The notes beneath the pieces were generated by a model. It was not told the DNA's origin. It did not search any database and worked only from the letters and a program-made list of their open reading frames with translations. A stretch of 64,000 nt of DNA from Chloroflexota bacterium. Its GTDB lineage: Bacteria > Chloroflexota > UBA11872 > VXOZ01. Location: assembly GCA_965216245.1 (NCBI GenBank), contig OZ244145.1, positions 820,943 through 884,942 on the forward strand, given 5' to 3'. Position numbers and translations under genes: made by a program. Positions 3,837 to 33,372 of this stretch are shown in pieces. Each line of letters starts with the position of its first letter. The stretch's first letter is position 1.

Positions 3837-4021
3837 GCTCTTCTTTGGTTACACTGGGTTGAACTGCGAAGTTTCAAATTGCAATAGGAAACCAATCGCC
3901 AGCATAAGAACCACTAATCACTACACCGCGCACCCGCTGGCAACTGCATAAACTCAATGACTCCATGCGTAGAACACGCTGGCTTAGCAGCAAATGCCGC
4001 TAAGCCAGCGCAGCACGTCTT

Positions 4022-5467
4022 CTACCAACCGCCCACAAGCTCCTGCCACTTCTCGATGATAATGTTCCACTCCTGTTCGACGTTTGCGAGACCTTCTTGA
4101 ATCGTGATGTTCCCCGCCATGACATCGGGCAGGAATCTACTCAACGACGTCCGCATCTCGTCAGCGCCGGGAATCGGCAGCGAATGCGACGCTCGGAACG
4201 GGATCTGATAGCTCTGGTGTTCGAGGAACGGATCACCCTCGGTGAAATCGGGCGAATTGGCGACGGAGAGTCGAATGGGCACGCGGTCCCAGGCCTTTGC
4301 CCAGCGAATGTTATTCTCCGGGCGTGACACGAACTCAATCCAAGCAAACGCCTCTTCGGGCACCGTCGTCCACGACGCCATGATCCAGATGTGATGACCG
4401 CTCCAACTCGCTTGGCGCACGGCGTTGGGCGGCTTCGGGTGCTCGATGATACTAAACCCGAAGTCCGGGTCAATTGGATAGATTTCCGCCTTGCGCGTGG
4501 AGTACGTTGCATACATTGAGGCGGTAAAGTCGTTGACAAGCGCAGCCCCACGCGGAGATCCAGAAGGACGAGCCGTCTTGTGCAGTGTAGCCAGCGCATC
4601 CCAGCCGCCCTGCATATCGTTTAGCTTCTTGACCCACGTCAGTGCCTCAACGGCTTCGGGGCTATTGATGGCCGCTTTGGTCAGGTCGTCACTGACCCGC
4701 TGGCCGCCGAGCTGTAAGAACGGCGTAATCCATTGGAACCGTCCGCCGCTGCCCCATTCGGGCGGGAAGCCCGCTACCACTACATTGCCAGCAGAATCTT
4801 TCCGCAGGGTCTTCTGAATGACCGATTCAAGCTCATCCCACGTTGCAGGACCATTTTCCGGGTCCAATCCATTTTCCAGAAAGATGCTATTGTGCATATA
4901 GATAACGCGCAGATCCGGGCCGTAAGGAAAGCCATAGAGCTGACCGTCTTTGCTCCAGACCATATTCTCGGTCAGGCTATCCCAAATGTCCTCCATATCG
5001 ATGTTGGAGCTCTTGACGAGGTCATTCAAACCGCGCGCCTGGCCGAGCGCACCGTGCTCAATGGCGTGCCACTCGCCCCAGGAACTAATGTCGTGAGGAG
5101 TGTTGGCAGCGAACGCCGTTCTGAATGCGGCATAGCGTTCGCCTGAATTACTGGACGGCGGATTGACATCAAAGTCGATATCGGGATGCTCTGCGCGAAA
5201 CTCCGCCACAAGCTCCGCAGATACACCCTCTTCATCCTGGAACTTGAAGTACGGATGCGTTGCAAACAGCACGTATACGGACTCTTTTTCGGGGGCAGCA
5301 GCCTCTGCTTGCGGTGCTTCCGCTTGCTCTTCTGTAGCCGCGGTCTGAACAGGCACGGCACCGCAAGCTGCAAGTGCGAGGACACCTAATGCGCCTCCTG
5401 AACCTACCAGAACGTTGCGGCGTGAAATTCGCTTTGCGTGAAAATCCATTGGTCTGCCTTTCTCCAC
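4022..5467 (-). CDS. ABC transporter extracellular solute-binding protein, family 1 (carbohydrate-type). It is a Tat-signal lipoprotein (SRRNVLVGSGGALGVLALAAC). An alternative start is MDFHAKR at 5449.
   Basis: RR motif followed by a lipobox Cys. A Glu/Ala/Pro-rich linker is followed by a periplasmic-binding-protein type fold. It is paralogous to 13056-14432 (shared DPENGPATWDE block). Confidence 0.75.
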   Translation of the reverse strand: MEKGRPMDFHAKRISRRNVLVGSGGALGVLALAACGAVPVQTAATEEQAEAPQAEAAAPEKESVYVLFATHPYFKFQDEEGVSAELVAEFRAEHPDIDFDVNPPSSNSGERYAAFRTAFAANTPHDISSWGEWHAIEHGALGQARGLNDLVKSSNIDMEDIWDSLTENMVWSKDGQLYGFPYGPDLRVIYMHNSIFLENGLDPENGPATWDELESVIQKTLRKDSAGNVVVAGFPPEWGSGGRFQWITPFLQLGGQRVSDDLTKAAINSPEAVEALTWVKKLNDMQGGWDALATLHKTARPSGSPRGAALVNDFTASMYATYSTRKAEIYPIDPDFGFSIIEHPKPPNAVRQASWSGHHIWIMASWTTVPEEAFAWIEFVSRPENNIRWAKAWDRVPIRLSVANSPDFTEGDPFLEHQSYQIPFRASHSLPIPGADEMRTSLSRFLPDVMAGNITIQEGLANVEQEWNIIIEKWQELVGGW

Positions 5468-5741: not shown

Positions 5742-6518
5742 CTAGAGAATCTGCGACAAGAAACGGCGCACCCGCTCGTGGCGCGGATTATTGAAGAACT
5801 CAGCAGGCGGCAGGTCTTCGACGATCTGGCCTTCGTCGAACATAACGATGCGGTCGGCCACTTCGCGGGCAAAACCCAACTCGTGGGTGATAGCCACGAT
5901 GGTCATCTGCTGTGAAGAAGCCAGTTCTTTCATTACTTCCAGCACTTCCTTGATCATCTCCGGGTCCAGAGCCGACGTGGGCTCGTCGAAGAGCATGATC
6001 TTGGGTTGCATCGCCAGCGCACGGGCGATAGCGACACGCTGCTGCTGACCGCCCGAGAGTTCGCCTGGATATTTGTCAGCCTGTTCCGGTATGCCCACAC
6101 GCTCCAGGAGCTCCCGCGCACTGTTCTCCGCATCGGCCAAGGGCGTTTTGCGCACCTTGGTTGGAGCCAGCGTGATGTTACGCAGTACCGTTAGATGGGG
6201 AAAGAGGTTGAACGATTGGAACACCATGCCTACCTCTCGGCGAATGGCGTCTATGTTGCGCACATCATCGGTCATCTCGACCCCATCAACGATGATATCG
6301 CCGCGCTGATGTTGCTCCAAGCGGTTGATGGCGCGGATAAACGTAGACTTACCCGAGCCGGAGGGGCCGATAACCACCACCACCTCGCTGCGGCGCACAG
6401 AGGTGGTGACGCCACGCAGGGCATGGAAGTCACCGAACCACTTGTGTACGTCACGGGCCACTATGATGTTGTCTGCTTCAGGAGCCTGTTCCGACGCTAC
6501 TGCTGCTTCTGCTGCCAC
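5742..6518 (-). CDS. Polar amino-acid ABC transporter ATP-binding protein (AapP/GlnQ-like).
   Basis: Walker A GPSGSGKST, signature LSGGQQQRVAIARAL and Walker B MLFDEPTSALD. Confidence 0.85.
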   Translation of the reverse strand: MAAEAAVASEQAPEADNIIVARDVHKWFGDFHALRGVTTSVRRSEVVVVIGPSGSGKSTFIRAINRLEQHQRGDIIVDGVEMTDDVRNIDAIRREVGMVFQSFNLFPHLTVLRNITLAPTKVRKTPLADAENSARELLERVGIPEQADKYPGELSGGQQQRVAIARALAMQPKIMLFDEPTSALDPEMIKEVLEVMKELASSQQMTIVAITHELGFAREVADRIVMFDEGQIVEDLPPAEFFNNPRHERVRRFLSQIL

Positions 6519-6589
6519 GTTAACCTCCGAGTGTTTCGACGCCCCATCGCAACCCTTGCGTGGGACTCATCCTTTGAAATCACTACGCA

Positions 6590-7879
6590 TTACCGTTGGC
6601 CAACGCCAAGATGCCGTTCCACCCGACGACTGACAAATGACATTGTGTACGTAAAGATCCAGAACACCACCGCCACGAATATGAAGAGCTCCCGTGCGTT
6701 GTCCGCGAATTGGACGTTGCCCTGCACGATGGAGCGTCCCATCTCCAAAATATCCAGCATGCCGACAATGTAAACCAGACTCGTGTCCTTGAACAGCGAA
6801 ATGAACTGCCCCACGATTGCGGGTATCACATTGCGGATAGCCTGAGGCAATTGTATCAGCATGGTGACCTGCCAGCCCGGCAGACCCAGGGCACGTGCCG
6901 CCTCGGCTTGACCCGGATGCAGTCCCTGCAGTCCCCCACGAATATTCTCGGCCGTGTACGCCGCCGAGAAGAGCGTAATCACAATAGCCGCCCGCGTCAC
7001 GGAGTCGACGGGAAAGTTCGACGGCAAGGCGAGCGGTACCAGCACTTGCGACATGAAAAGCAGCGTAATCAGCGGTACGCCGCGAAAAACCTCGATGAAT
7101 ACCACGCAGAGAACCTTGACCACCGGCAGATTGCTCCGCCGTCCGAGCGCCAGCAGCACACCAATTGGAAAAGCAAAGAAGATACCCGATACTGCCAGAA
7201 TCAGGTTGAGCATCAGGCCGCCCCACTTACGCGGCGCCACCTCTTCCATGCCGGGAAAACCCGGTAATCCGTTGAGCAACAGTAGCAGGAACACGTAGAT
7301 CGCAATGCCGCCGAGCACGAACGTGCGTGGTTGCCCGGTTCTAGGATGGCTACCCAAGCCGTAGCCTAGGCCGATGGTCAACACGTTAGCCAGAATAAGA
7401 GCACGCACCCACCAGGGCATTACCACGCCCTCGTGGAAGAGGCCGTAGGGCAGCACTCCTAGCAACACCGTAACGACGCTATAGCCGATGGCAATGCGCC
7501 GGGCAGCTCCACCCCACATGGCGGCAGCCATGCCGAAGAGGATTGAGACCAGCAGCCAACCTACTAACGGCCGCCATGCGAGTTCTGTTGGGTACAGGCC
7601 GATGAGATACTGTTGCGGTCGGCTCGCGATGAGCGTCCAGTCAGCGGTGCCGAAAACCCAGCGTATAATGCTCCAGATCAACCATAGGAGCATCGGTACA
7701 GTGACCACGGTCACAATGCCGCTAAGCCAGTTGCCAAATAAGTTGGTCCTAGCCCAACCAATCCAACCTGTTTCTGTGAGTGGCGGAGGCAGTGAGGGCG
7801 CCGGTTGCCACGATTCCGCAGTAGCCATAAAGCAGCTAGCCTTAATTGAACTGGATGTGCCGGTTATAAAGATTGCCAA
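6590..7879 (-). CDS. Amino-acid ABC transporter permease (AapM/BztC-like large permease). The likely true start is the internal Met at about 7828, which removes the 38-bp overlap.
   Basis: Multiple TM segments and the EAA loop motif GQAEAARALGLPGWQVTMLIQLPQAIRNVIP. Confidence 0.8.
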   Translation of the reverse strand: MAIFITGTSSSIKASCFMATAESWQPAPSLPPPLTETGWIGWARTNLFGNWLSGIVTVVTVPMLLWLIWSIIRWVFGTADWTLIASRPQQYLIGLYPTELAWRPLVGWLLVSILFGMAAAMWGGAARRIAIGYSVVTVLLGVLPYGLFHEGVVMPWWVRALILANVLTIGLGYGLGSHPRTGQPRTFVLGGIAIYVFLLLLLNGLPGFPGMEEVAPRKWGGLMLNLILAVSGIFFAFPIGVLLALGRRSNLPVVKVLCVVFIEVFRGVPLITLLFMSQVLVPLALPSNFPVDSVTRAAIVITLFSAAYTAENIRGGLQGLHPGQAEAARALGLPGWQVTMLIQLPQAIRNVIPAIVGQFISLFKDTSLVYIVGMLDILEMGRSIVQGNVQFADNARELFIFVAVVFWIFTYTMSFVSRRVERHLGVGQR

Positions 7880-9038
7880 TCAGGGAGTATGTGAGACTGA
7901 AAAGCAAGTAAACGCCCATGATAATGAGAAATATGGTAACCGCTGGGGCCGTCTGAGTCATGGTCTTAGCCACACTGGTCAAGTCCGCGTAGCCGATGGC
8001 CAAAGCCAGACTACTGTTCTTAGTTAAGTTTAGGTACTGACTGATAAGAGGCGGGACGATGACACGCAGCGCCTGTGGGAAAGTAACGAAGCGCAACGTC
8101 TGCATGGTACCCAAGCCCAAAGAGCGGGATGCCTCGCTCTGTCCCCGCAATACGGATTGCAACCCACCGCGCACTATCTCGGCAATAAAGGCTGAGGTAT
8201 AGATGATCAATCCTAGCAACAACGCTGTCAGTTCGATAGATACGGCGTAGCCGCCTACCGGATGACCGAAGCGACCCTCCGGATGCGGGACACTCATGAT
8301 GAACGGGGCATCACCAATGATCACCCACACCACCCACGCAATCAAAGAACCCACTAACGCCACGCCAATCGCCCCCAACCAGGGATAGGACGAGCGGCCG
8401 GTTCGCAGTTCGCGCCGATCCAGATACAGGTGTGCGACGAACCCCAACGCGATAGCCGCTACAACGCATAGAAGCCACAACCCCGGCCGCTGTTGACCCT
8501 CAGGCCATGGAAACGACAACCCCGCGTTATTGTTCAGGTAGACAGCATCAAACCAGACAAATCCACCCTGTTGTACCGATGGCAGTCCCAGCAGCAAGAT
8601 GTACCAGAAGAAGAGTTGCACTAACAGGGGAACATTGCGAAAGATCTCCACGTAAACAGTAGCTACTTTGCTAATCACCCAGTTGCCGGAAAGCTGTACC
8701 GCGCCCACGATGATGCCTAGAGTAGTAGCGAGTATCACACCCACTATAGACACCATCAGCGTGTTGGTGGCGGCTACGAGGAAGGCATAGCCAAAGCTAT
8801 CGCTCTCTTCGTAGGGCAGCAGGTGTTCACTTATAGGCGTGGAGTACTCTCGGTTCAGAAACGACCAGCCGAAGGGAATGTCTCGTTGATCCATCGCAGA
8901 CGCAATGTTGGAGATGAAGAACGCCACAGCCGCCACCACAAGGATCCCCGACACGATCTGCGTGGTCCAGCTAAGGATACGAGAGTGTCGCCAAAGAGGA
9001 ATTCCCTGGTACGTTAGCGAAAGTCGCATTTCGTGCAA
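7842..9038 (-). CDS. Amino-acid ABC transporter permease (AapQ/BztB-like).
   Basis: EAA loop GQSEASRSLGLGTMQTLRFVTFPQALRVIVPP and polytopic membrane topology. Confidence 0.8.
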   Translation of the reverse strand: MHEMRLSLTYQGIPLWRHSRILSWTTQIVSGILVVAAVAFFISNIASAMDQRDIPFGWSFLNREYSTPISEHLLPYEESDSFGYAFLVAATNTLMVSIVGVILATTLGIIVGAVQLSGNWVISKVATVYVEIFRNVPLLVQLFFWYILLLGLPSVQQGGFVWFDAVYLNNNAGLSFPWPEGQQRPGLWLLCVVAAIALGFVAHLYLDRRELRTGRSSYPWLGAIGVALVGSLIAWVVWVIIGDAPFIMSVPHPEGRFGHPVGGYAVSIELTALLLGLIIYTSAFIAEIVRGGLQSVLRGQSEASRSLGLGTMQTLRFVTFPQALRVIVPPLISQYLNLTKNSSLALAIGYADLTSVAKTMTQTAPAVTIFLIIMGVYLLFSLTYSLIGNLYNRHIQFN

Positions 9039-9101
9039 CTCCTAGCAATTCTGCCGCGTCATTACGGGCGACGGTTCTCCAAGTGACCCGACGCCCTTTG
9101 G

Positions 9102-10238
9102 CTAGCGCAGTGGCGCCGCATATATCTGACCGCCCTTGGGGCAGTCCGAGCACGGGGCATTCGACCACAACGCGTTGCGGGATCCTTCCCGCGGTAGATC
9201 GATGTCTGTCTCCGGACCCAAGTTCCGCGCATAGATCTCGCCGTAGTTCCCAACCATCTTGATTACGGTCTGCCCTACGATTTTATCGAGGCCCAATTCA
9301 TCTTGCCCGAACGAACCCTCTGTGCCAAGCAAGCGCTTTGCCTTCACGTTGTCCCCAACGGCCATCTCGTCAACGTTGGTCGAGTTGATACCGTACGCCT
9401 CGGCGTAAATCAAGATGCTCATTACCGTCTTTACAATGTCGAACCACTGCTCGTCGCCGTGAGGCACCAGCGGTCCCAGCGGCTCCTCGGAAATCGTCTC
9501 CGGCAGGATGACGTGTTCATCCGGATTAGTCAAAGAACTCCGCAGCGCCGTAAGCGCCGAGCGGTCGGTCGTGAACACTTCACAGGCGCCGCTCTTATAG
9601 GCCGCGAAGGCCACTTGCGCCTCTTCGAATGTCTTTGGATTATACTCCATATTGTTCTGGCGGAAGAAGTCGGCCATGTTCAGCTCAGAAGTGGTGCCGG
9701 TATTTACGCAGACCGCCGCGCCTGCCAACTCGTACGCGCTCGCCACTCCCAGGTTCCTAGGTACCATGAAGCCCTGGCCGTCATAGAACATCGTTTGCAC
9801 GAAATTTCCCCAAGCGGCGTCGCGGGACGTCGTCCACGTTGTCACGTACACGAGTAAATCCACTTCGCCCGACTGCATCACAGGCCCGCGCTCGGCAGCC
9901 GAAATCAGACGAATCTCAACGGCATCAGGATCACCTAACACGCCCGCAGCCACGGCCCGGCAGAGATCGATGTCAAAACCGACACTATTACCGGTTTCGT
10001 CCACGTAGCCAAACCCCGGCGTGTCGTTGAGGCTGGCACAGATGAGACGACCCCGAGCGCGCACTGCCTCAAGACGCGAGGTCTCAGCCTGCGCCACTAC
10101 AGCCTCGGTCTCAGGTTTTTCGGCAGAATTTTCCATCTCCGGCTCGGTAGTCGTGGCGCAGGCCGCGCTCAGCGCGAACATGAGCGCCATTCCCAAGACA
10201 GCCAAACACTTTCCCGTCTGATTCAAGCAAGTCCTCAT
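9102..10238 (-). CDS. General L-amino-acid ABC transporter substrate-binding lipoprotein (AapJ-like), copy 1.
   Basis: Signal peptide plus lipobox LSAAC. It has a family-3 SBP-like fold and shares most of its length with 10495-11622. Confidence 0.8.
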   Translation of the reverse strand: MRTCLNQTGKCLAVLGMALMFALSAACATTTEPEMENSAEKPETEAVVAQAETSRLEAVRARGRLICASLNDTPGFGYVDETGNSVGFDIDLCRAVAAGVLGDPDAVEIRLISAAERGPVMQSGEVDLLVYVTTWTTSRDAAWGNFVQTMFYDGQGFMVPRNLGVASAYELAGAAVCVNTGTTSELNMADFFRQNNMEYNPKTFEEAQVAFAAYKSGACEVFTTDRSALTALRSSLTNPDEHVILPETISEEPLGPLVPHGDEQWFDIVKTVMSILIYAEAYGINSTNVDEMAVGDNVKAKRLLGTEGSFGQDELGLDKIVGQTVIKMVGNYGEIYARNLGPETDIDLPREGSRNALWSNAPCSDCPKGGQIYAAPLR

Positions 10239-10439
10239 GGCATTCCCAGCCTCTTTGCTAAAGGCACCCTAAGACTCCACATCAATCAGAGCATACACCC
10301 ATTGCCGCAGCAGGGAAACCATTCGCAGTGCGGCACGCTGCGTAAGCTAGTCTATCTTGAACCTTGACCCAGCCCCTCATAACTACAGCGCAACACTGCT
10401 CCAGCATCCAGCAGCGCAGCGAGGTGGTAATACCAAAAG

Positions 10440-10475
10440 TCGCGTCGACCCGGAAGAGGTCCAGGCCGACGCGAC
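10440..10475. terminator. Hairpin GTCGCGTCG-N18-CGACGCGAC between the two aapJ paralogs.
   Basis: 9-bp stem read directly from the sequence. Confidence 0.35.
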
Positions 10476-10494
10476 GATTATCAGCGACTACGAA

Positions 10495-11622
10495 CTAGCG
10501 CAGCGGCGCAGCATAGATCTGTCCGCCCTTCGGGCAGTCAGTGCAAGGCGCATTCGACCACAGCGCATTGCGCGAACCCTCACGCGGCAGATTGACGTCC
10601 GTCTCCGGACCCAAGTTCCGCGCATAGATCTCGCCATAGTTGCCTACTGCCTTGATAACGTTCTGGCCCACTAGCTTATCAAGTCCCAACTGTTCTTGAC
10701 CAAATCCGCCTTCCGTGCCCAGCAAGCGCTTCGCCTTCACATTATCGCCAACGGCCATCGCGTCAACGTTGGTCGAGTTGATGCCGTAGGCTTCGCCGTA
10801 GATCAGGATGCTCATCACGGTCTTCACAATGTCGAACCACTGCTCGTCACCGTGGGGCACCACCGGTCCCAGCGGCTCCTCGGAAATCGTCTCCGGTAGA
10901 ATGATGTGTTCATCCGGATTAGGCAGAGCCGTCCTCAGCGCGGCAAGCTGCGAGCGGTCGTTAGTAAAGACTTCGCACGCGCCACTCTTGTAGGCTTCAA
11001 GCACCACGTCTGTATCTTCATAGACCTTCGGGTTGTACTCCAAGCCGTTCTGGCGGAAGTAGTCGGCCATGTTCAACTCGGTGGTCGTACCGCTGGTCAC
11101 ACAGACCGCGGCGCCAGCCAACTCAAGTGCGCTACTCACACCCAGGCTCTTCGGAACCATGAAGCCCTGGCCGTCGTAGAACATTGTCTGCGCGTAGTTA
11201 CCCCATGCAGCATCGCGCGAGGTCGTCCATGTGACGGTGCGTACGAGCAAGTCCACCTCGCCCGACTGGACGGTAGGTCCGCGCTCGGCAGCCGTAATCA
11301 AGCGGATTTCAAATGCATCCGGGTCGTTCAGCACGGCCGCTGCCACGGCGCGGCAAAGGTCGATGTCGAAGCCCACGCTATTGCCGGCCTCGTCTATGGA
11401 ACCGTAGCCCGGCACATCGTTGCGGCTAGCGCAAATGACGTGTCCCCGTTCCTTCACGGTTTCCAAGCGTGAAGTCTTAGCCGTTTCCACCACCACGGGC
11501 TTGGGTTCGCCATCTTTTTCCATCTCTCCCGAATCCGCCTCGTCATCACCGCACGCCACACTGAAAAGCAGCGCGAGCATGACGCCCAAAACGACCAGGA
11601 GCTTACAAAGATTTCTCATCAT
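10495..11622 (-). CDS. General L-amino-acid ABC transporter substrate-binding lipoprotein (AapJ-like), copy 2 (tandem paralog).
   Basis: Signal peptide plus lipobox FSVAC. Long near-identical blocks are shared with copy 1 (e.g. GNSVGFDIDLCRAVAA, LPETISEEPLGP). Confidence 0.8.
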   Translation of the reverse strand: MMRNLCKLLVVLGVMLALLFSVACGDDEADSGEMEKDGEPKPVVVETAKTSRLETVKERGHVICASRNDVPGYGSIDEAGNSVGFDIDLCRAVAAAVLNDPDAFEIRLITAAERGPTVQSGEVDLLVRTVTWTTSRDAAWGNYAQTMFYDGQGFMVPKSLGVSSALELAGAAVCVTSGTTTELNMADYFRQNGLEYNPKVYEDTDVVLEAYKSGACEVFTNDRSQLAALRTALPNPDEHIILPETISEEPLGPVVPHGDEQWFDIVKTVMSILIYGEAYGINSTNVDAMAVGDNVKAKRLLGTEGGFGQEQLGLDKLVGQNVIKAVGNYGEIYARNLGPETDVNLPREGSRNALWSNAPCTDCPKGGQIYAAPLR

Positions 11623-11849
11623 TTCCCCTCCCTCATAGCACCTCTTCGTGCTTCGATATTGCGATCCATTATATTGACTACACTATCCCGTTGCAACTAA
11701 GAAAACTGCCCTATCAACATCGACTTGCCACCGGCATCTAGCCTCGTTGCCAAGCACAGCTTGACTTGCGGGCACATAGAGATGTCTCCTAGGCCTCCTT
11801 TCAATCGCAAATCACTAAACTGCGGTGCCGGAATAACTTGAATCTAGGG

Positions 11850-12791
11850 CTAACCAACCACCACGGACTGCTGCGCAAGCACACGTTCCGCTTCACGAGT
11901 TGAACGATCGTGGTATTCCACCCAATTCTCAAGACCGTACTCGCTCTTGATGCGTGACATCGGCCACGCGTCGTCGTTGGATTCCACCATGAATACGCCG
12001 TCGTCCCGTGTACCTATTATAGTTACCCTGTGCCCGAGATCCGTCTGCATCTGGCGAATCTGCTCGTATTGCATGTCGTAGTGGAAAACTTCAGCTTCAA
12101 GATCAACCGTACTGTGAGCCACGTGCACGCCCAAGCCACTGGCGGCAACCTCGTCTCCGAGTTTGTTGATAATGCGCGAGCGTCCGCCGCTCACCGAAGA
12201 GACGATGATGTAACTGTGCAGCCAGGCATACGCTCGCAACCGCAAGCCGCCGTCGCACATGCTTGGGAAGACTACAAGCTCGGCCCCTGCCGCGCCGAGC
12301 CGCGCCCACTCTTCCGGATAGTCAACGTCGAAGCAGATGAGCATTCCTACCCTGCCAAAATCCGTCTCGAAAACCGGCAATTCGGAATAGACTCCGGGAA
12401 CCGTCCCTGCCTCGAGCTCTCCCAGCGTAGGATGGACCTTGTCATATTGACCGACGATTTCGCCCTGACGATCAAAGAGGACGCTGGTATTGAGCCGCAC
12501 GTTACCGCGCACCTCACACATGCCGGCAACGACATACATGCCATGCTGACGGGCCTTTTCCGCATAGACGTCTGAGGTCGGACCGGGAATGGGCTCCCAT
12601 GCTTTCTCACGTTCCTCCGCGTCGCCCGACAGGCCCAAAATAGTGAATTCTTCCGGCAAGCACGCAAGATCAGCGCCCAAGCCTCCCATCCGATCCAGCA
12701 GTTCCGCCGCCAATTCGTGGTTCGCGGCAATCGAAGCGCGGCTACTCATGTGGCCGACGCACGCAGTGGCTACCAACGCTTTGCGCGGCAT
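11850..12791 (-). CDS. Carbon-nitrogen hydrolase family protein (nitrilase/amidase superfamily).
   Basis: CN-hydrolase layout with catalytic Glu, Lys and Cys. The Cys lies in the GMLICFD context. Confidence 0.75.
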   Translation of the reverse strand: MPRKALVATACVGHMSSRASIAANHELAAELLDRMGGLGADLACLPEEFTILGLSGDAEEREKAWEPIPGPTSDVYAEKARQHGMYVVAGMCEVRGNVRLNTSVLFDRQGEIVGQYDKVHPTLGELEAGTVPGVYSELPVFETDFGRVGMLICFDVDYPEEWARLGAAGAELVVFPSMCDGGLRLRAYAWLHSYIIVSSVSGGRSRIINKLGDEVAASGLGVHVAHSTVDLEAEVFHYDMQYEQIRQMQTDLGHRVTIIGTRDDGVFMVESNDDAWPMSRIKSEYGLENWVEYHDRSTREAERVLAQQSVVVG

Positions 12792-28779: not shown

Positions 28780-30507
28780 CTATTTCGGAAGTGCTTGTAA
28801 CGCCAGGTATGCAGGTCTCGGGTTCAAGTGTTCGTCGAGAATCCCGAAGGAATAAGCGCTGTCAGTCGGTTCGATTTGATTGGCAAAGTTCAAATTGAAA
28901 ACTACCAGTCCGGTGACATACGGAAACCTATGCTTCGCCAGTAGATAGGATTCGGCCAGATACCGCCCCTGGTCTTCGTCGGAAACCTCTACCCCATAGG
29001 GAAATTCAGGATGCAAGTTGTGCGTGGTCCATCCCATCTCCGTCAACCAGATACTCTTACCCGTGTCACCGTACTTTTGCAGCACGTCCCAGTGATTCTC
29101 AAAGCGGCGGAAGTAGAACGACCAGTGGTGTTTGTACGTGGTACCGGACGTCGAGTAGTTATCGGGCGTATCGCCCGGCGCATTATTGAAGCCATATGAG
29201 TGCAACCCGAGCACATCGAAATAGTTGCGGATTATGCCATCGCGGTACTGGTACATAGCCTCCAGGTATGCCACGTCGTCCATGGCAACTCCCTCGCGAT
29301 TGACTCCTGTGGGCGACAAGCCGCCGCTGACGACAATAGCGTTCGGATTCCCGCGCTTCACTCCCCGATAGCCCGCGCCCATGAGCTCAACGAATTCCCA
29401 TGGCGCGACCGTACCATCCCAGTTTCCGGCCAAGTTAGGCTCATTCCAGAGTTCATAGGATTGCACCTGATCGCCGTAACGCGACGCGATGATGGCCAAG
29501 AAGTTTTCAAAGTCGCCGAAATTCGCCGGCGGGCCGTTGTGGAAACTTCCAAACTGCGCCCACCACTCCTCGACGGAGCCAGCAGCGGAGCCTTGCTGTA
29601 CGGCGATTTGATTCCCTGTGGGTCGTACACGGCGCATCCAATAGGGCGATGCATAGATGCCCAGCATCACTTCCAAGCCGTGCCGGTTTGCCGCCTCTAC
29701 AATGCGGTCTACCTGGTCCCACATATACCCGCCGGGATGGAGTTCTACCGCCTTCCACTCTACTTGCTGCTTGATGCCGGTAAAGCCCGCGGCCTTTGCT
29801 AACGCGAGCACGTGCTCGATATTAGGGTCGTAGAAAAGCGAGACTTGCGCGATGAGCTTCAGTTGCGAATCTCGTGCAGGCTGGTCCACTATTGTTTGCA
29901 ACGTGCCACGCAACGAGAGGAAGGCTCGACCTAGCGGCGCCAGTTGTACCTCGTCGGGGGTGCCGGACTTGGTTGGATCATAGCGAAATACGGCTCGTTC
30001 GAAGTATTGGACCGCATGCTGCCAATCGTCATCAGCCGGTAACTCTCCGGAAATCGGCAGCCCAAACACTTGCACACCGCCGTGCTCTTGGAAAAAACGG
30101 AGGAATGCAAAGCGCACGGCATGGCCTGTCTCCGGGAAAAACCGCTGCGCAGACGTCTCTGCTACCGGTTCTTCCTGGGAGAAGAAGCGCCAGTGCGGAT
30201 AAAGCAAGCGACCCAACGGGCTGAACCGCACCTGGCCGCGCTGCGGCCACCACTCCAGCCGCGCATTCTCGAAATATTGGACGACGTGACCGTCTTCGCT
30301 TTGCTCATTAGTCAGCGGCTGTCCTAGAACGCTTTCGCCTCCCATTTGCTCGAAGTAGTCGAGCATAGCCCCATGCACAATAGTATTCGTGGCCTGAAAA
30401 TGCCTCGGCTCCGAATTGGCGAAAACCGGAGTCGGTAGGAGCATGAAGCAGGTAAAGAATAGTAGCAATCGAACATACCAACGCCGTGGGCCAATACCTT
30501 TCATCAT
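28780..30507 (-). CDS. Secreted glycoside hydrolase, clan GH-A (GH5/GH39-like). Its N-terminus carries LGFP-type repeats.
   Basis: Signal peptide. Repeated GQPL/GLPI..QYFE.A blocks match the LGFP repeat. The catalytic acid/base lies in ELWNEPN and the nucleophile in LTEMGW. Confidence 0.7.
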   Translation of the reverse strand: MMKGIGPRRWYVRLLLFFTCFMLLPTPVFANSEPRHFQATNTIVHGAMLDYFEQMGGESVLGQPLTNEQSEDGHVVQYFENARLEWWPQRGQVRFSPLGRLLYPHWRFFSQEEPVAETSAQRFFPETGHAVRFAFLRFFQEHGGVQVFGLPISGELPADDDWQHAVQYFERAVFRYDPTKSGTPDEVQLAPLGRAFLSLRGTLQTIVDQPARDSQLKLIAQVSLFYDPNIEHVLALAKAAGFTGIKQQVEWKAVELHPGGYMWDQVDRIVEAANRHGLEVMLGIYASPYWMRRVRPTGNQIAVQQGSAAGSVEEWWAQFGSFHNGPPANFGDFENFLAIIASRYGDQVQSYELWNEPNLAGNWDGTVAPWEFVELMGAGYRGVKRGNPNAIVVSGGLSPTGVNREGVAMDDVAYLEAMYQYRDGIIRNYFDVLGLHSYGFNNAPGDTPDNYSTSGTTYKHHWSFYFRRFENHWDVLQKYGDTGKSIWLTEMGWTTHNLHPEFPYGVEVSDEDQGRYLAESYLLAKHRFPYVTGLVVFNLNFANQIEPTDSAYSFGILDEHLNPRPAYLALQALPK

Positions 30508-30776: not shown

Positions 30777-31910
30777 TCAGCCACCGCGAACAGCACGCAC
30801 CAAATGTGCACGAAGTTCGCTCGCTGCCCGCTCCCACGTGAATCCAGCAGCGCGTTCTCTTCCCGCGGCAATGAGTTGCGCACGCTTGACTTCATCTGTA
30901 GCAAGCACCAAGAGCGCCCCGCCAATGGCATCAACGTCGTTGGGATCTACGAGGATGGCCGCCTCACCCGAGACCTCGGGCAGGGATGACGTATTCGAAG
31001 TGACTACCGGTGTGCCGCACGCCATGGCTTCGAGCACGGGCAGCCCAAAACCCTCGTACAGGCTGGGAAACACAAGAGCGCTCGCGCTGCTGTAAAGGAC
31101 CGCAAGATCCTCATCGGAATCGACGGTAGTCAGGAAGTGCACCCGCTCGGAAACGCCGTGTTCCTGCGGGGCGGCGAGTATCTGCTCGTAGAGCCAGCCC
31201 GGACGCCCCACGTGCACGAGGTGATGGGGCAGCCCAGCATCAACAACCGAGCGCATGGCCGCGATCACGCGGGCAATGTTCTTTCTTGGCTGAATTGTGC
31301 CTACTGTAAGAAAGTAGGAATACGCTATGCCATGTCGCTGAAGCACTGCCGCACGTAAGGCTGGGTTATTGCGGGAACGGAATACCCCGTCAACGCCGCA
31401 ATGAAGCACTTCAATACGGGCGGGCTCGACGTGATATGCGCCTATCAAGTCTTGCCGGGTAGCTTCCGAGTCCGCGAGCACCAATTGAGCGCGCGCGACA
31501 CTGCGCGGAACGACAGATTCCAAGTACGAACGCAAGGAATTCGGGTAGGAGTCTGGAAAGTGAAGGTATGAAAGATCGTGGACGGTGATGACGCCGGGTG
31601 CGCGCCACAGCGGCGGCAAGACGAAATCCGGCGCGTAGAAGACATCGACCCCGCCCGCGAGCAGATCGGCATAGAGAGGCAGCCGCAGCCGATGCCAGAT
31701 GCGCGTCAGCGCGCGCTCGGATAGCGGCAGATACCGATACCTCAATTTAGGAGATACGAGGCGTCGCCAATGCCCTTCTGAGAATCGTGGCATTAAGAGT
31801 GTGATTTGGTCGACGAAGGGCTGTGCTATGAGCGCACTGACAAGCGACCACGTATACCTGCCAATGCCGGCCGGTTGGGTGGCTGCGGTAAAGTCAATTC
31901 CTATTCTCAT
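30777..31910 (-). CDS. Glycosyltransferase family 4. An ATG start at 31910 (MRIGIDF) is preferred over the TTG at 31934.
   Basis: EAMACGTPVVTSNTSSLPEVSGEAA motif. Confidence 0.8.
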   Translation of the reverse strand: MRIGIDFTAATQPAGIGRYTWSLVSALIAQPFVDQITLLMPRFSEGHWRRLVSPKLRYRYLPLSERALTRIWHRLRLPLYADLLAGGVDVFYAPDFVLPPLWRAPGVITVHDLSYLHFPDSYPNSLRSYLESVVPRSVARAQLVLADSEATRQDLIGAYHVEPARIEVLHCGVDGVFRSRNNPALRAAVLQRHGIAYSYFLTVGTIQPRKNIARVIAAMRSVVDAGLPHHLVHVGRPGWLYEQILAAPQEHGVSERVHFLTTVDSDEDLAVLYSSASALVFPSLYEGFGLPVLEAMACGTPVVTSNTSSLPEVSGEAAILVDPNDVDAIGGALLVLATDEVKRAQLIAAGRERAAGFTWERAASELRAHLVRAVRGG

Positions 31911-31983
31911 GACACTAGGAACACCAAACGGCAACTCTGCTTGGAGCCTGTCGTGGCCAACCTATCCATTAGAGCTATGCCGC

Positions 31984-32397
31984 CTATATTGCACAGTCGG
32001 CGAGCCTCGCTAGCAGTTTTTTCGAGGGCTTTGGGCTACTGTAAATGCCCTTAGTCTCCCAAGACTTGGTGTGAAGCCAATCGGTCACCTCTCCTACTAT
32101 GGCAACCAGTTCGTCGTGAAGGATCAAGTACCACTTTCCTCGAACCGGAAACGTCATGTATAAGCCCTTGCACAAGTAGCTTCGGTTGATGGTTAGACGG
32201 GCCTTGAGTTGCACTTTGAGCGTCTGGGTTCCGTCTTTGTGGTATGCAAGAAAGTCTGCACCTTGCCAGTCATCGGACAACTTGAGGCAATTATACCCAT
32301 ACTCCGCAAGCAACCCAGCAACTTTCTGAAAATTGTAGATTTCCTTTTGCTTTGCATTCAGCTCATCATACTTTGCACGCTGTAATCTCACCGCCAC
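31984..32397 (-). CDS. Hypothetical 137-aa protein in a low-GC (about 48%) patch. It may have a PD-(D/E)xK nuclease-like fold (GADFLAYHKDG...LKVQLK).
   Basis: Compositional drop relative to the ~60% flanks. The ORF is intact and on the same strand as the surrounding operon. The fold call is motif-level only. Confidence 0.45.
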   Translation of the reverse strand: MAVRLQRAKYDELNAKQKEIYNFQKVAGLLAEYGYNCLKLSDDWQGADFLAYHKDGTQTLKVQLKARLTINRSYLCKGLYMTFPVRGKWYLILHDELVAIVGEVTDWLHTKSWETKGIYSSPKPSKKLLARLADCAI

Positions 32398-32409
32398 ACT
32401 ACCCCCTTC

Positions 32410-33372
32410 TCAGTGTTGCGAAGCTACTTCCGCGCGATTGCGACCCCAGAGCCGTAGGCGCGCGTGCGTGAAGTAGTAGGCTGCACCGGGAATCAGGACC
32501 AGCCAGTAACTAATGAACCGGTCGAGGATTGCCACTGCCGCTGCCATGTCCACCGGCACGCCAAGCAGCAACATTACCCCTACCATACCCCCTTCCACCG
32601 CGCCCAGGCCCCCGGGGGTGGGTGCGGCGAGCAAGAGCGCGCCTGCCGCAAAGACAAACAGCAGTTGCGGCGCCTCAAGCGAGACACCCATCGCGTTTGC
32701 CACCAGGAAGAAGCGTCCGGCTTCAGCAGCCCATGCCAGCGCAGTAAGTACAATCATGAGCCACAGTGGCTTTGTCGACGCAAAGATACCGCGCTGAAAG
32801 CGCTCGAACCGTTCGCCCAACTTATGGGGCAGCCGTGATAGGAGAGTGCTGTCCAAGCGCCAGAATAGAAACAAGCCGCCCGCCATGAGCACCGCCAAAA
32901 TTCCAACGCTCAGGAGGACTCCTCGCATCTCGCTCAGCAACTCGCCGCGCACAAAGAAGAGTGCAGCAGTTACTGCAATTGCTAGCAGAGCGAGCATATC
33001 AATCACACGCTCCGCAAGTACGCTACCCGTGGTAAGCGCGAATGAAATCCGTTCTCTGCGGCGTAGGATTAGCCCCCGGTAGAGGTCTCCCATCTTGGCG
33101 GGAATCAGATGATTAACGAACCAAGAGAGGAAAATGACCTCTCCCAATAGGCGCGTCGGGACCGTGTGGCCTAGATTTTGCAACATCCTGCGCCACCGCA
33201 CCGCCCGCGGCAGCAACGTTGTGTAGTAAACCATCAACGCAAGCAAATAGAGCCGTATGTCTATTTGCCTGATTTCGGCCCAAATTCCCCGCCAATCGAG
33301 CCCACCCAGGCGCCAAAGCGCGACCAAGAGCGCCGCCGCAACGAGAAAGGAGAAGATCGTCTGCGGACTCAA
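32410..33372 (-). CDS. Flippase-like / lysylphosphatidylglycerol-synthase-TM-domain (UPF0104, PF03706) membrane protein.
   Basis: About 8 TM helices with a conserved Gly-rich C-terminal segment (APTPGGLGAVEGGMVGV), typical of this family. It is commonly linked to GT operons. Confidence 0.65.
   Translation of the reverse strand: MSPQTIFSFLVAAALLVALWRLGGLDWRGIWAEIRQIDIRLYLLALMVYYTTLLPRAVRWRRMLQNLGHTVPTRLLGEVIFLSWFVNHLIPAKMGDLYRGLILRRRERISFALTTGSVLAERVIDMLALLAIAVTAALFFVRGELLSEMRGVLLSVGILAVLMAGGLFLFWRLDSTLLSRLPHKLGERFERFQRGIFASTKPLWLMIVLTALAWAAEAGRFFLVANAMGVSLEAPQLLFVFAAGALLLAAPTPGGLGAVEGGMVGVMLLLGVPVDMAAAVAILDRFISYWLVLIPGAAYYFTHARLRLWGRNRAEVASQH

Follow-up and report, generated by a model that had tools for sequence, protein, structure and literature searches.

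Within a 64,000-nucleotide stretch of a Chloroflexota metagenome-assembled genome (MAG; contig OZ244145.1, hereafter the window) we analysed a 137-codon open reading frame, ORF137, which stands between two genes of a glycosyltransferase operon (Table 1). The combined evidence points to a small, mobile, stand-alone nuclease of the PD-QxK type, which is a passenger of the operon and has methylase-independent defence as its most likely role. We give this reading as a whole a probability of roughly 0.55.

The ORF137 protein is basic (pI 9.3), and its AlphaFold model (predicted local distance difference test score, pLDDT, of 94.5) shows the PD-(D/E)xK (restriction-endonuclease) fold. On predicted secondary structure, the protein has the acidic residue in helix 1, the Asp at the start of strand 2 and the (D/E/Q)xK motif in strand 3 that characterize this superfamily. 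The initial annotation had pointed to the segment GADFLAYHKDG..LKVQLK as compatible with such a fold. The segment is indeed present, its D...QxK residues occupy the canonical positions, and a helix-1 glutamate completes the site. Residues E19, A47-D48 and Q63-x-K65 are invariant among 73 aligned homologues, and E19, D48, Q63 and K65 are kept even in plasmid homologues with only 29–45% identity. ORF137 thus has the PD-QxK variant with a helix-1 Glu, as found in the BisI family and in Mrr-like enzymes (the EcoKMrr sequence reads GIDGV...VQAKR). The fold proposed in the initial annotation is therefore correct, and the glutamine represents a known, active form of the PD-(D/E)xK site. NhoI and Eco15I share an E / (W/A)D / Q(V/I)K site, that of the Mrr-like PD-QXK subgroup (AD/QIK in Eco15I; WD/QVK in NhoI, with Glu50 as the helix-1 residue); the Asp and Gln bind metal, and mutation of Eco15I at any of these residues abolished activity (PMC11347163). 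We therefore predict, with considerable confidence, that ORF137 has nuclease activity.

The same operon was located in related genomes via orthologues of the gene upstream of ORF137. The source MAGs appear to be long-read assemblies, judging solely by their circular, megabase-scale contigs. Over the locus, OZ244922.1 (L009) is 96% and OZ253463.1 (L010) 94% identical to the window, and both carry the gene. The site is also occupied in three further genomes, L095, L096 and L097, whose copies are 74%, 70% and 82% identical, respectively. In four others (L091–L094) the GT4 gene comes immediately after LPG_synthase_TM, with a gap of 4–155 bp and without ORF137. The filled and empty genomes are interleaved in a phylogeny of the flanking sequences. 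No remnants of the gene were detected in the empty spacers, either with blastn-short or with hmmsearch with its filters off. The spacers of approximately 150 bp are not homologous to one another, and for this reason gain and loss of the gene are not distinguishable from them. The earlier proposals that the gene is inserted inside the operon and was horizontally acquired are both borne out by these empty sites: since the operon lacks it in four relatives, ORF137 is an accessory gene that moves horizontally.

Pairwise comparisons of these loci revealed swapped tracts. The filled locus of L095 and the empty locus of L092 are 99–100% identical apart from a single tract, comprising ~22 bp at the 3' end of the upstream gene, the insert and the 5'-most 300–400 bp of the GT4 gene. 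L096 and L091 differ by a clean exchange of 534 bp for 149 bp, with no diverged tract. Comparison of the window with L097 placed a recombination breakpoint inside ORF137 itself. Upstream of this point the two sequences are ~97–100% identical, and they are diverged over ~490 bp, from just after codon K65 to ~220 bp into the glycosyltransferase gene. Accordingly, the N-terminal 66 aa of the two proteins are identical and the C-terminal halves share only ~65% identity. The filled and empty sites, the swapped tracts and the lack of any remnant show that ORF137 segregates at this site, and that homologous recombination moves or removes the gene among related Chloroflexota.

The 5' segment of the GT4 gene is hypervariable, with two old allelic types: type A in the window, L095, L096, L091 and L093, and type B in L097, L092 and L094. 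Neither the presence of ORF137 nor the remainder of the locus goes along with these types, which are shuffled independently. Around ORF137, the operon forms a recombination hot spot in which alleles segregate. Two further observations concern the comparison of the window with L010, in which the neighbouring operon genes are 96.5–97.3% identical. ORF137 (31984–32397 against 6001–6414 of L010) shows 99.3% identity and the 49-nt spacer 100%, which hints at more recent exchange or extra constraint. The GH5-like gene (28780–30507) shows only ~85% DNA identity (75–83% centrally), and is a second swapped tract in the same operon.

The base composition of ORF137 is anomalous. Its guanine-plus-cytosine (GC) content is 48.6%, compared with a window mean of 57.9% and values of 58.8% and 59.2% for the adjacent LPG_synthase_TM and GT4 genes. 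This corresponds to z = −5.5 relative to the 58.7 ± 1.9% of 42 long genes of the window used as reference, and none of 565 in-frame 137-codon windows cut from these genes was as GC-poor. The GC content at third codon positions (GC3) is 58.7% versus 68.5%, and an equally low GC3 occurred in only 1.1% of the 565 windows. The remaining low-GC spots in the window are all intergenic. The anomaly is thus real and specific to ORF137, as the initial annotation had stated in describing a dip over exactly this reading frame. The codon-adaptation check that it suggested agrees: a score resembling the codon adaptation index (CAI) was 0.631 for ORF137, below all 42 reference genes. As an argument for horizontal origin, the GC content holds only in part. 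The protein recoded with host codon usage would still have a GC content of only 52.8%; hence the low GC is only partly a signature of foreign origin. Of the deficit of about 10 points, ~4 are due to atypical codons and ~6, i.e. more than half, to an amino acid composition rich in K, N, Y and F. Across the family, GC3 tracks that of the host only partly (slope 0.63; 78 other genomes), with the lag being greatest in high-GC hosts.

Homologues of ORF137 form a large family, comprising >1,400 protein clusters at 90% identity. At 50% identity, ~1,000 representatives match at E ≤ 0.001 and 684 at E ≤ 1e-10; where they are named by their source at all, they are given as 'hypothetical protein'. A search of 185,579 species genomes (one genome per species) gave 228 matches, with 56–67% identity to the window protein. 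According to record titles, the hosts include Chloroflexota, Acidobacteriota (Vicinamibacterales), Nitrospirota, Gamma- and Betaproteobacteria, Verrucomicrobiota, Binatia, Rhodothermia, Elusimicrobia and Thermodesulfobacteriota, about ten phyla overall. Two MAGs contain two copies per genome. Phages almost entirely lack the family (none of 50,697 INPHARED phage records and three of 2.9 million IMG/VR viral contigs carry it). The family-wide mean pairwise identity is 80% over residues 12–66, the catalytic half, and 50% over residues 67–137. The ratio of nonsynonymous to synonymous substitution rates (dN/dS) is ~0.1 between copies at dS values of 1.3–1.8, so that the gene is functional and under purifying selection. 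The suggestion that ORF137 is a remnant is not tenable, given this ratio, its full length and the retention of every invariant residue.

In other genomes, unrelated locus pairs share only the gene together with 20–45 bp upstream and 45–95 bp downstream, at 92–97% identity. Of these pairs, one comes from a Nitrospirales and a Vicinamibacterales genome (dS 0.24), and another consists of two copies within one genome. A −10-like box (TACAAT) and a ribosome-binding site (GAGG) are present in some of the leaders. The family moves as a single-gene unit of ~0.5 kb. No consistent terminal inverted repeats or target duplications were found at the unit ends. The copy in Vibrio furnissii CIP 102972 (L085) is an integron cassette, composed of a ~20-nt leader, the ORF and its own attC of ~120 nt; it lies as a single-ORF cassette in a chromosomal integron array (5844–12367) with at least 11 VCR (Vibrio cholerae repeat)-type attC repeats. 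In a scan of 86 loci, an attC signature was detected at one, the same frequency as in controls. The window copy and the other 85 loci have neither the signature nor a cassette array, and among the copies an attC site is present only in that of Vibrio furnissii.

Several features were noticed close to individual copies. In three Vicinamibacterales loci an ORF of ~86 aa lies in convergent orientation just downstream of the family gene (minus strand, 6403–6663 in L038 and L059, 6397–6654 in L052). Its 3' end appears, by eye, to overlap the stop codon of the family gene, and it would take in the shared 94-nt tail of the mobile unit. In another Vicinamibacterales locus (L048), 300-nt direct repeats, 100% identical, at 4005–4304 and 7319–7618 flank the family gene (6001–6411); this arrangement could represent a composite or duplicated structure. 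In the Nitrospirales contig OZ242026.1 (L043, 8990–12331), dense repeats of 48–181 nt, in up to 12 copies and some of them in 146-nt tandem arrangement, occur ~3 kb downstream of the family gene. They seem to be miniature inverted-repeat transposable elements (MITEs) or repetitive extragenic palindromic (REP) elements unrelated to it.

The spread of a lone 0.5-kb gene without integrase or transposase would be explained if ORF137 were a selfish, free-standing homing-type endonuclease, cutting genomes that lack the gene so that repair copies it in. The minimal units with short shared flanks in unrelated contexts, the two genomes with two copies, the lack of a partner gene and a structural match to I-Ssp6803I are all in keeping with this idea, as is the occurrence of filled and empty alleles of one intergenic site in sister genomes, where the flanking tract that diverges between L095 and L092 resembles co-conversion. 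Nevertheless, we consider it unlikely. Co-conversion of the homing type was rejected, as the two 5' types of the GT4 gene do not track the presence of ORF137 and the swap between L096 and L091 is clean. Because of this independence of the GT4 alleles, the L095/L092 tract reflects ordinary hot-spot recombination. Furthermore, the insertion contexts have no common target sequence, there is no intron or intein (an Rfam scan around the window gene gave no credible match and no group I intron), and phages hardly carry the family at all. Further arguments against homing are the strong purifying selection acting over long times and across phyla, and the domain fusions with Mrr_N, Nmad3 and HEPN (described below). 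A broader proposal may be set beside it, namely that of a minimal self-sufficient nuclease promoting its own spread into intergenic sites across phyla without integrase or transposase, in effect a bacterial 'homing' nuclease that is free-standing and has an Mrr-like PD-QxK core, or else a defence nuclease with a new, universally conserved target; this, too, we regard as improbable.

The reading of ORF137 as a defence nuclease draws on its surroundings and on its domain partners in other genomes. When flanking ORFs were clustered for ~78 non-redundant loci, no recurrent neighbour was found beyond a six-genome syntenic clade. Neighbouring genes mostly lie close by and have the same orientation as the family gene. 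Among 150 immediate neighbours, classified by bulk Pfam and PADLOC searches, most are unrelated housekeeping genes; transposases, Fic, PDC-S01, a reverse transcriptase and Cas1 are scattered among them, and only 1 of the 150 is a methyltransferase. The gene is thus solitary and without a cognate methyltransferase. Nine plasmids carry distant homologues, one of which follows a type ISP restriction-modification enzyme at a distance of 11 bp. Plasmid p1 of Paracoccus aerodenitrificans (L101, 1980–8618) contains a candidate five-gene operon with overlapping start and stop codons, which encodes a HigA antitoxin, a 911-aa type IIG-like methyltransferase (PADLOC E = 3e-282), a 137-aa homologue of ORF137, a DEAD/DEAH helicase and a GIY-YIG nuclease; PADLOC did not recognise it as a system.

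Longer members of the family are fusions in which the domain is joined to Mrr_N, Nmad3, HEPN_Swt1 or ankyrin repeats. In P0160, Mrr_N is placed upstream of the family domain, as in Mrr. Two other proteins, P0142 and P0144, have a conserved N-terminal domain of ~250 aa (residues 1–250) fused to the nuclease domain, for which no Pfam, NCBIfam or PDB sequence match was obtained. In-frame tandem fusions of the domain occur mostly in Dehalococcoidia (L025, L037, L047, L049, L054, L056, L060–L062, L065, L080 and L084; at about 6001–6900 in most), and their C-terminal copy has lost D48 and QxK (e.g. VRCPG in place of VQLKA). Such a fusion would constitute a single-chain pseudo-dimer with one active site, and for this reason the single-domain form probably works as a dimer.

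The absence of a methylase or other partner, the fusion partners typical of conflict systems, the plasmid relatives near restriction systems and the absence from phages together make type IV-like defence the most likely role. We rate the chances of such a methylase-independent, type IV-like function as about even, and defence is the best supported of the roles proposed in the initial annotation. Dependence of cleavage on DNA modification is a more tentative suggestion and rather doubtful.

Several results weigh against this interpretation. No sequence homology to any curated nuclease family was detectable with Pfam, NCBIfam or PDB profile searches. The PDB sequence and profile searches yielded no real match, only repeat artefacts from designed TIM barrels, and the BisI-family structures 8q5n and 8q5m were not retrieved at E ≤ 10. 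Mrr_cat had no match in 73 members at E ≤ 1, and hhalign found no similarity to EcoKMrr (probability 0.5%). Most copies are situated between housekeeping genes rather than in defence islands. Modification dependence is argued solely by analogy, from the QxK motif, the missing methylase and the fusions to Mrr_N and Nmad3. Finally, restriction enzymes typically diverge fast, and the very high conservation of the family (~60% identity between phyla, rising to 80% within the catalytic half) is unusual for such enzymes. This conservation suggests that the target is invariant, for instance a modified base or a DNA structure, rather than a variable sequence.

Searches with ORF137 against Pfam, NCBIfam and PHROGs matched no family, and a search of a viral structure library gave generic weak matches only. 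Sub-threshold matches to DUF4365 and DUF1064, which we take to be PD-(D/E)xK families, were seen in some members and suggest a link only at the superfamily level. Since the sequence tests fail for Mrr_cat, the BisI family and Hjc, the ORF137 family should be described as a new, unannotated one that would act like a PD-QxK restriction nuclease and belongs to no named family.

A structure-specific nuclease of DNA repair or recombination, like the archaeal Holliday-junction resolvase Hjc, would have a similar fold, but this alternative is quite improbable. The patchy distribution seen in the species genomes, the presence or absence of the gene between sister strains and its frequent horizontal transfer do not fit such a role; nor do the QxK site in place of ExK, the lack of a Hjc match in Pfam and the links of plasmid copies to restriction systems. 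Phages often carry resolvases, and the family is absent from them.

We also considered a toxin or abortive-infection effector, i.e. a non-specific nuclease whose activity would be suppressed before infection, through self-regulation or through an antitoxin that is unlinked or an RNA. Some copies do adjoin toxin-antitoxin genes (VapBC, PIN, Fic, HigA, PepG1), several have a conserved 3' tail of 45–95 nt that could encode an RNA, and PADLOC gave one weak candidate match, to PDC-M02A (E = 0.023), on which no literature was found. However, no adjacent protein partner is conserved in the ~78 loci, so that a type II antitoxin neighbour is lacking and the classical toxin envisaged in the initial annotation finds no support. 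Moreover, the tails are not conserved across the family, there is no Rfam match around the window gene, and the window copy has only an unrelated 49-nt tail and 12 nt upstream. This explanation is therefore very unlikely.

The last alternative, a dedicated accessory factor of the polysaccharide operon, has in its favour the tight packing, shared orientation and lack of an own promoter, and can be practically dismissed, because four related genomes have the same operon without ORF137, homologues in ~78 other genomes have unrelated neighbours (with no glycosyltransferase among the 25 most frequent neighbour families listed), and the fold and invariant residues are of the nuclease type.

The positions of ORF137, its presumed catalytic residues and the adjacent features are compiled in Table 1. 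The reading frame occupies exactly the positions given in the initial annotation, which did not name its strand (minus). The operon consists of LPG_synthase_TM, GT4, GH5, GT4 and GT4 genes, preceded by a divergently oriented M42 peptidase gene. The ribosome-binding site of ORF137, GAAGGGGG, is located 4 nt 5' of the start codon and abuts the TGA stop codon of the upstream gene (32410–32412). A scan of the 49-nt tail for an attC signature was negative, with no R''/R' boxes. Neither a promoter-like site at ORF137 nor a terminator between the operon genes was found on the coding strand; hence ORF137 is most likely co-transcribed with the operon by read-through and translated from its own ribosome-binding site.

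Table 1. Location of ORF137, its predicted catalytic residues and neighbouring features in the window.
Feature	Position	Strand	Remarks
ORF137, stand-alone protein with predicted PD-(D/E)xK nuclease fold	31984..32397	minus	137 aa, GTG start, TAG stop
Predicted catalytic core, codons E19 to K65	32203..32343	minus	E / AD / QxK signature
E19	32341-32343	minus	helix 1 (predicted secondary structure)
D48	32254-32256	minus	start of strand 2 (predicted); preceded by A47
Q63 and K65	32209-32211 and 32203-32205	minus	strand 3 (predicted)
Recombination breakpoint inside ORF137, approximate, just after K65	32198..32204	minus	50-nt identity profile versus L097
Spacer upstream of ORF137, 12 nt	32398..32409	minus	ribosome-binding site GAAGGGGG at 32402-32409; read from sequence
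Upstream operon gene, LPG_synthase_TM / flippase-like membrane protein	32410..33372	minus	Pfam PF03706, E = 1e-48; left border of insertion site
Spacer from ORF137 stop to TTG start of GT4 gene, 49 nt	31935..31983	minus	no attC-like or other recognisable element
Downstream operon gene, GT4 glycosyltransferase	30777..31934	minus	Pfam Glycos_transf_1 and Glyco_transf_4; right border of insertion site
Recombination-prone 5' segment of GT4 gene, first ~330 nt	31605-31934	minus	hypervariable, two old allelic types; identity profiles and allele matrix

Taken as a mobile defence nuclease, ORF137 would have reached its present position as a single-gene unit of ~0.5 kb that landed between two operon genes, and the resulting presence/absence polymorphism would then have been shuffled by homologous recombination among related Chloroflexota. 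Operon read-through would provide its transcript, and translation would start from the ribosome-binding site of the gene itself. In the protein, the Asp and Gln would hold a Mg2+ ion and the Lys would activate a water molecule. The resulting dimeric, metal-dependent nuclease would cut foreign DNA, recognising an invariant feature such as a base modification. As a passenger, ORF137 should not be assigned to the polysaccharide pathway.

If this interpretation is true, the family represents an unannotated and unusually conserved group of very small, partner-less restriction-type nucleases distributed over about ten phyla. Small nucleases that depend on DNA modification are of practical use as reagents for mapping epigenetic marks and, as components of bacterial immunity, they are little explored. 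The distribution also raises the question of how a single gene of 0.5 kb crosses phyla and sites without a recombinase.

Among known systems, the closest parallel is provided by the BisI family of modification-dependent restriction endonucleases (NhoI, Eco15I and BisI; PDB 8q5n and 8q5m), also composed of small solitary PD-(D/E)xK enzymes that need no cognate methylase. The helix-1 Glu, (W/A)D and Q-x-K of these enzymes correspond to E19, A47-D48 and Q63-L64-K65 of ORF137, and they work as dimers, as proposed above for ORF137. In contrast to this family, ORF137 lacks the extra N-terminal dimerisation helix alpha0 of NhoI; there is no detectable sequence homology, and in structure ORF137 is closer to Hjc and I-Ssp6803I. 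Mrr, a type IV, methyl-directed restriction enzyme composed of Mrr_N and Mrr_cat, resembles ORF137 in its D...QxK signature and in being solitary and methylase-independent.

The homing endonuclease I-Ssp6803I (PDB 2ost) differs in several respects: ORF137 is not intron-encoded, has no conserved target site, belongs to a family that is not confined to cyanobacteria, and shows no sequence similarity to it. Hjc (PDB 2wcw and 1gef) has ExK where ORF137 has QxK, and the E-D-E-K catalytic set of this enzyme is not found in ORF137. Hjc is also a vertically inherited core gene, whereas the ORF137 family is patchy, horizontally transferred and bacterial. With integron cassettes, finally, the family shares the ~0.5-kb unit, in which a single ORF stands between a short leader and a 3' tail. 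A true cassette is seen in Vibrio furnissii, whereas the window copy and 85 of 86 loci show no attC signature and reside outside cassette arrays.
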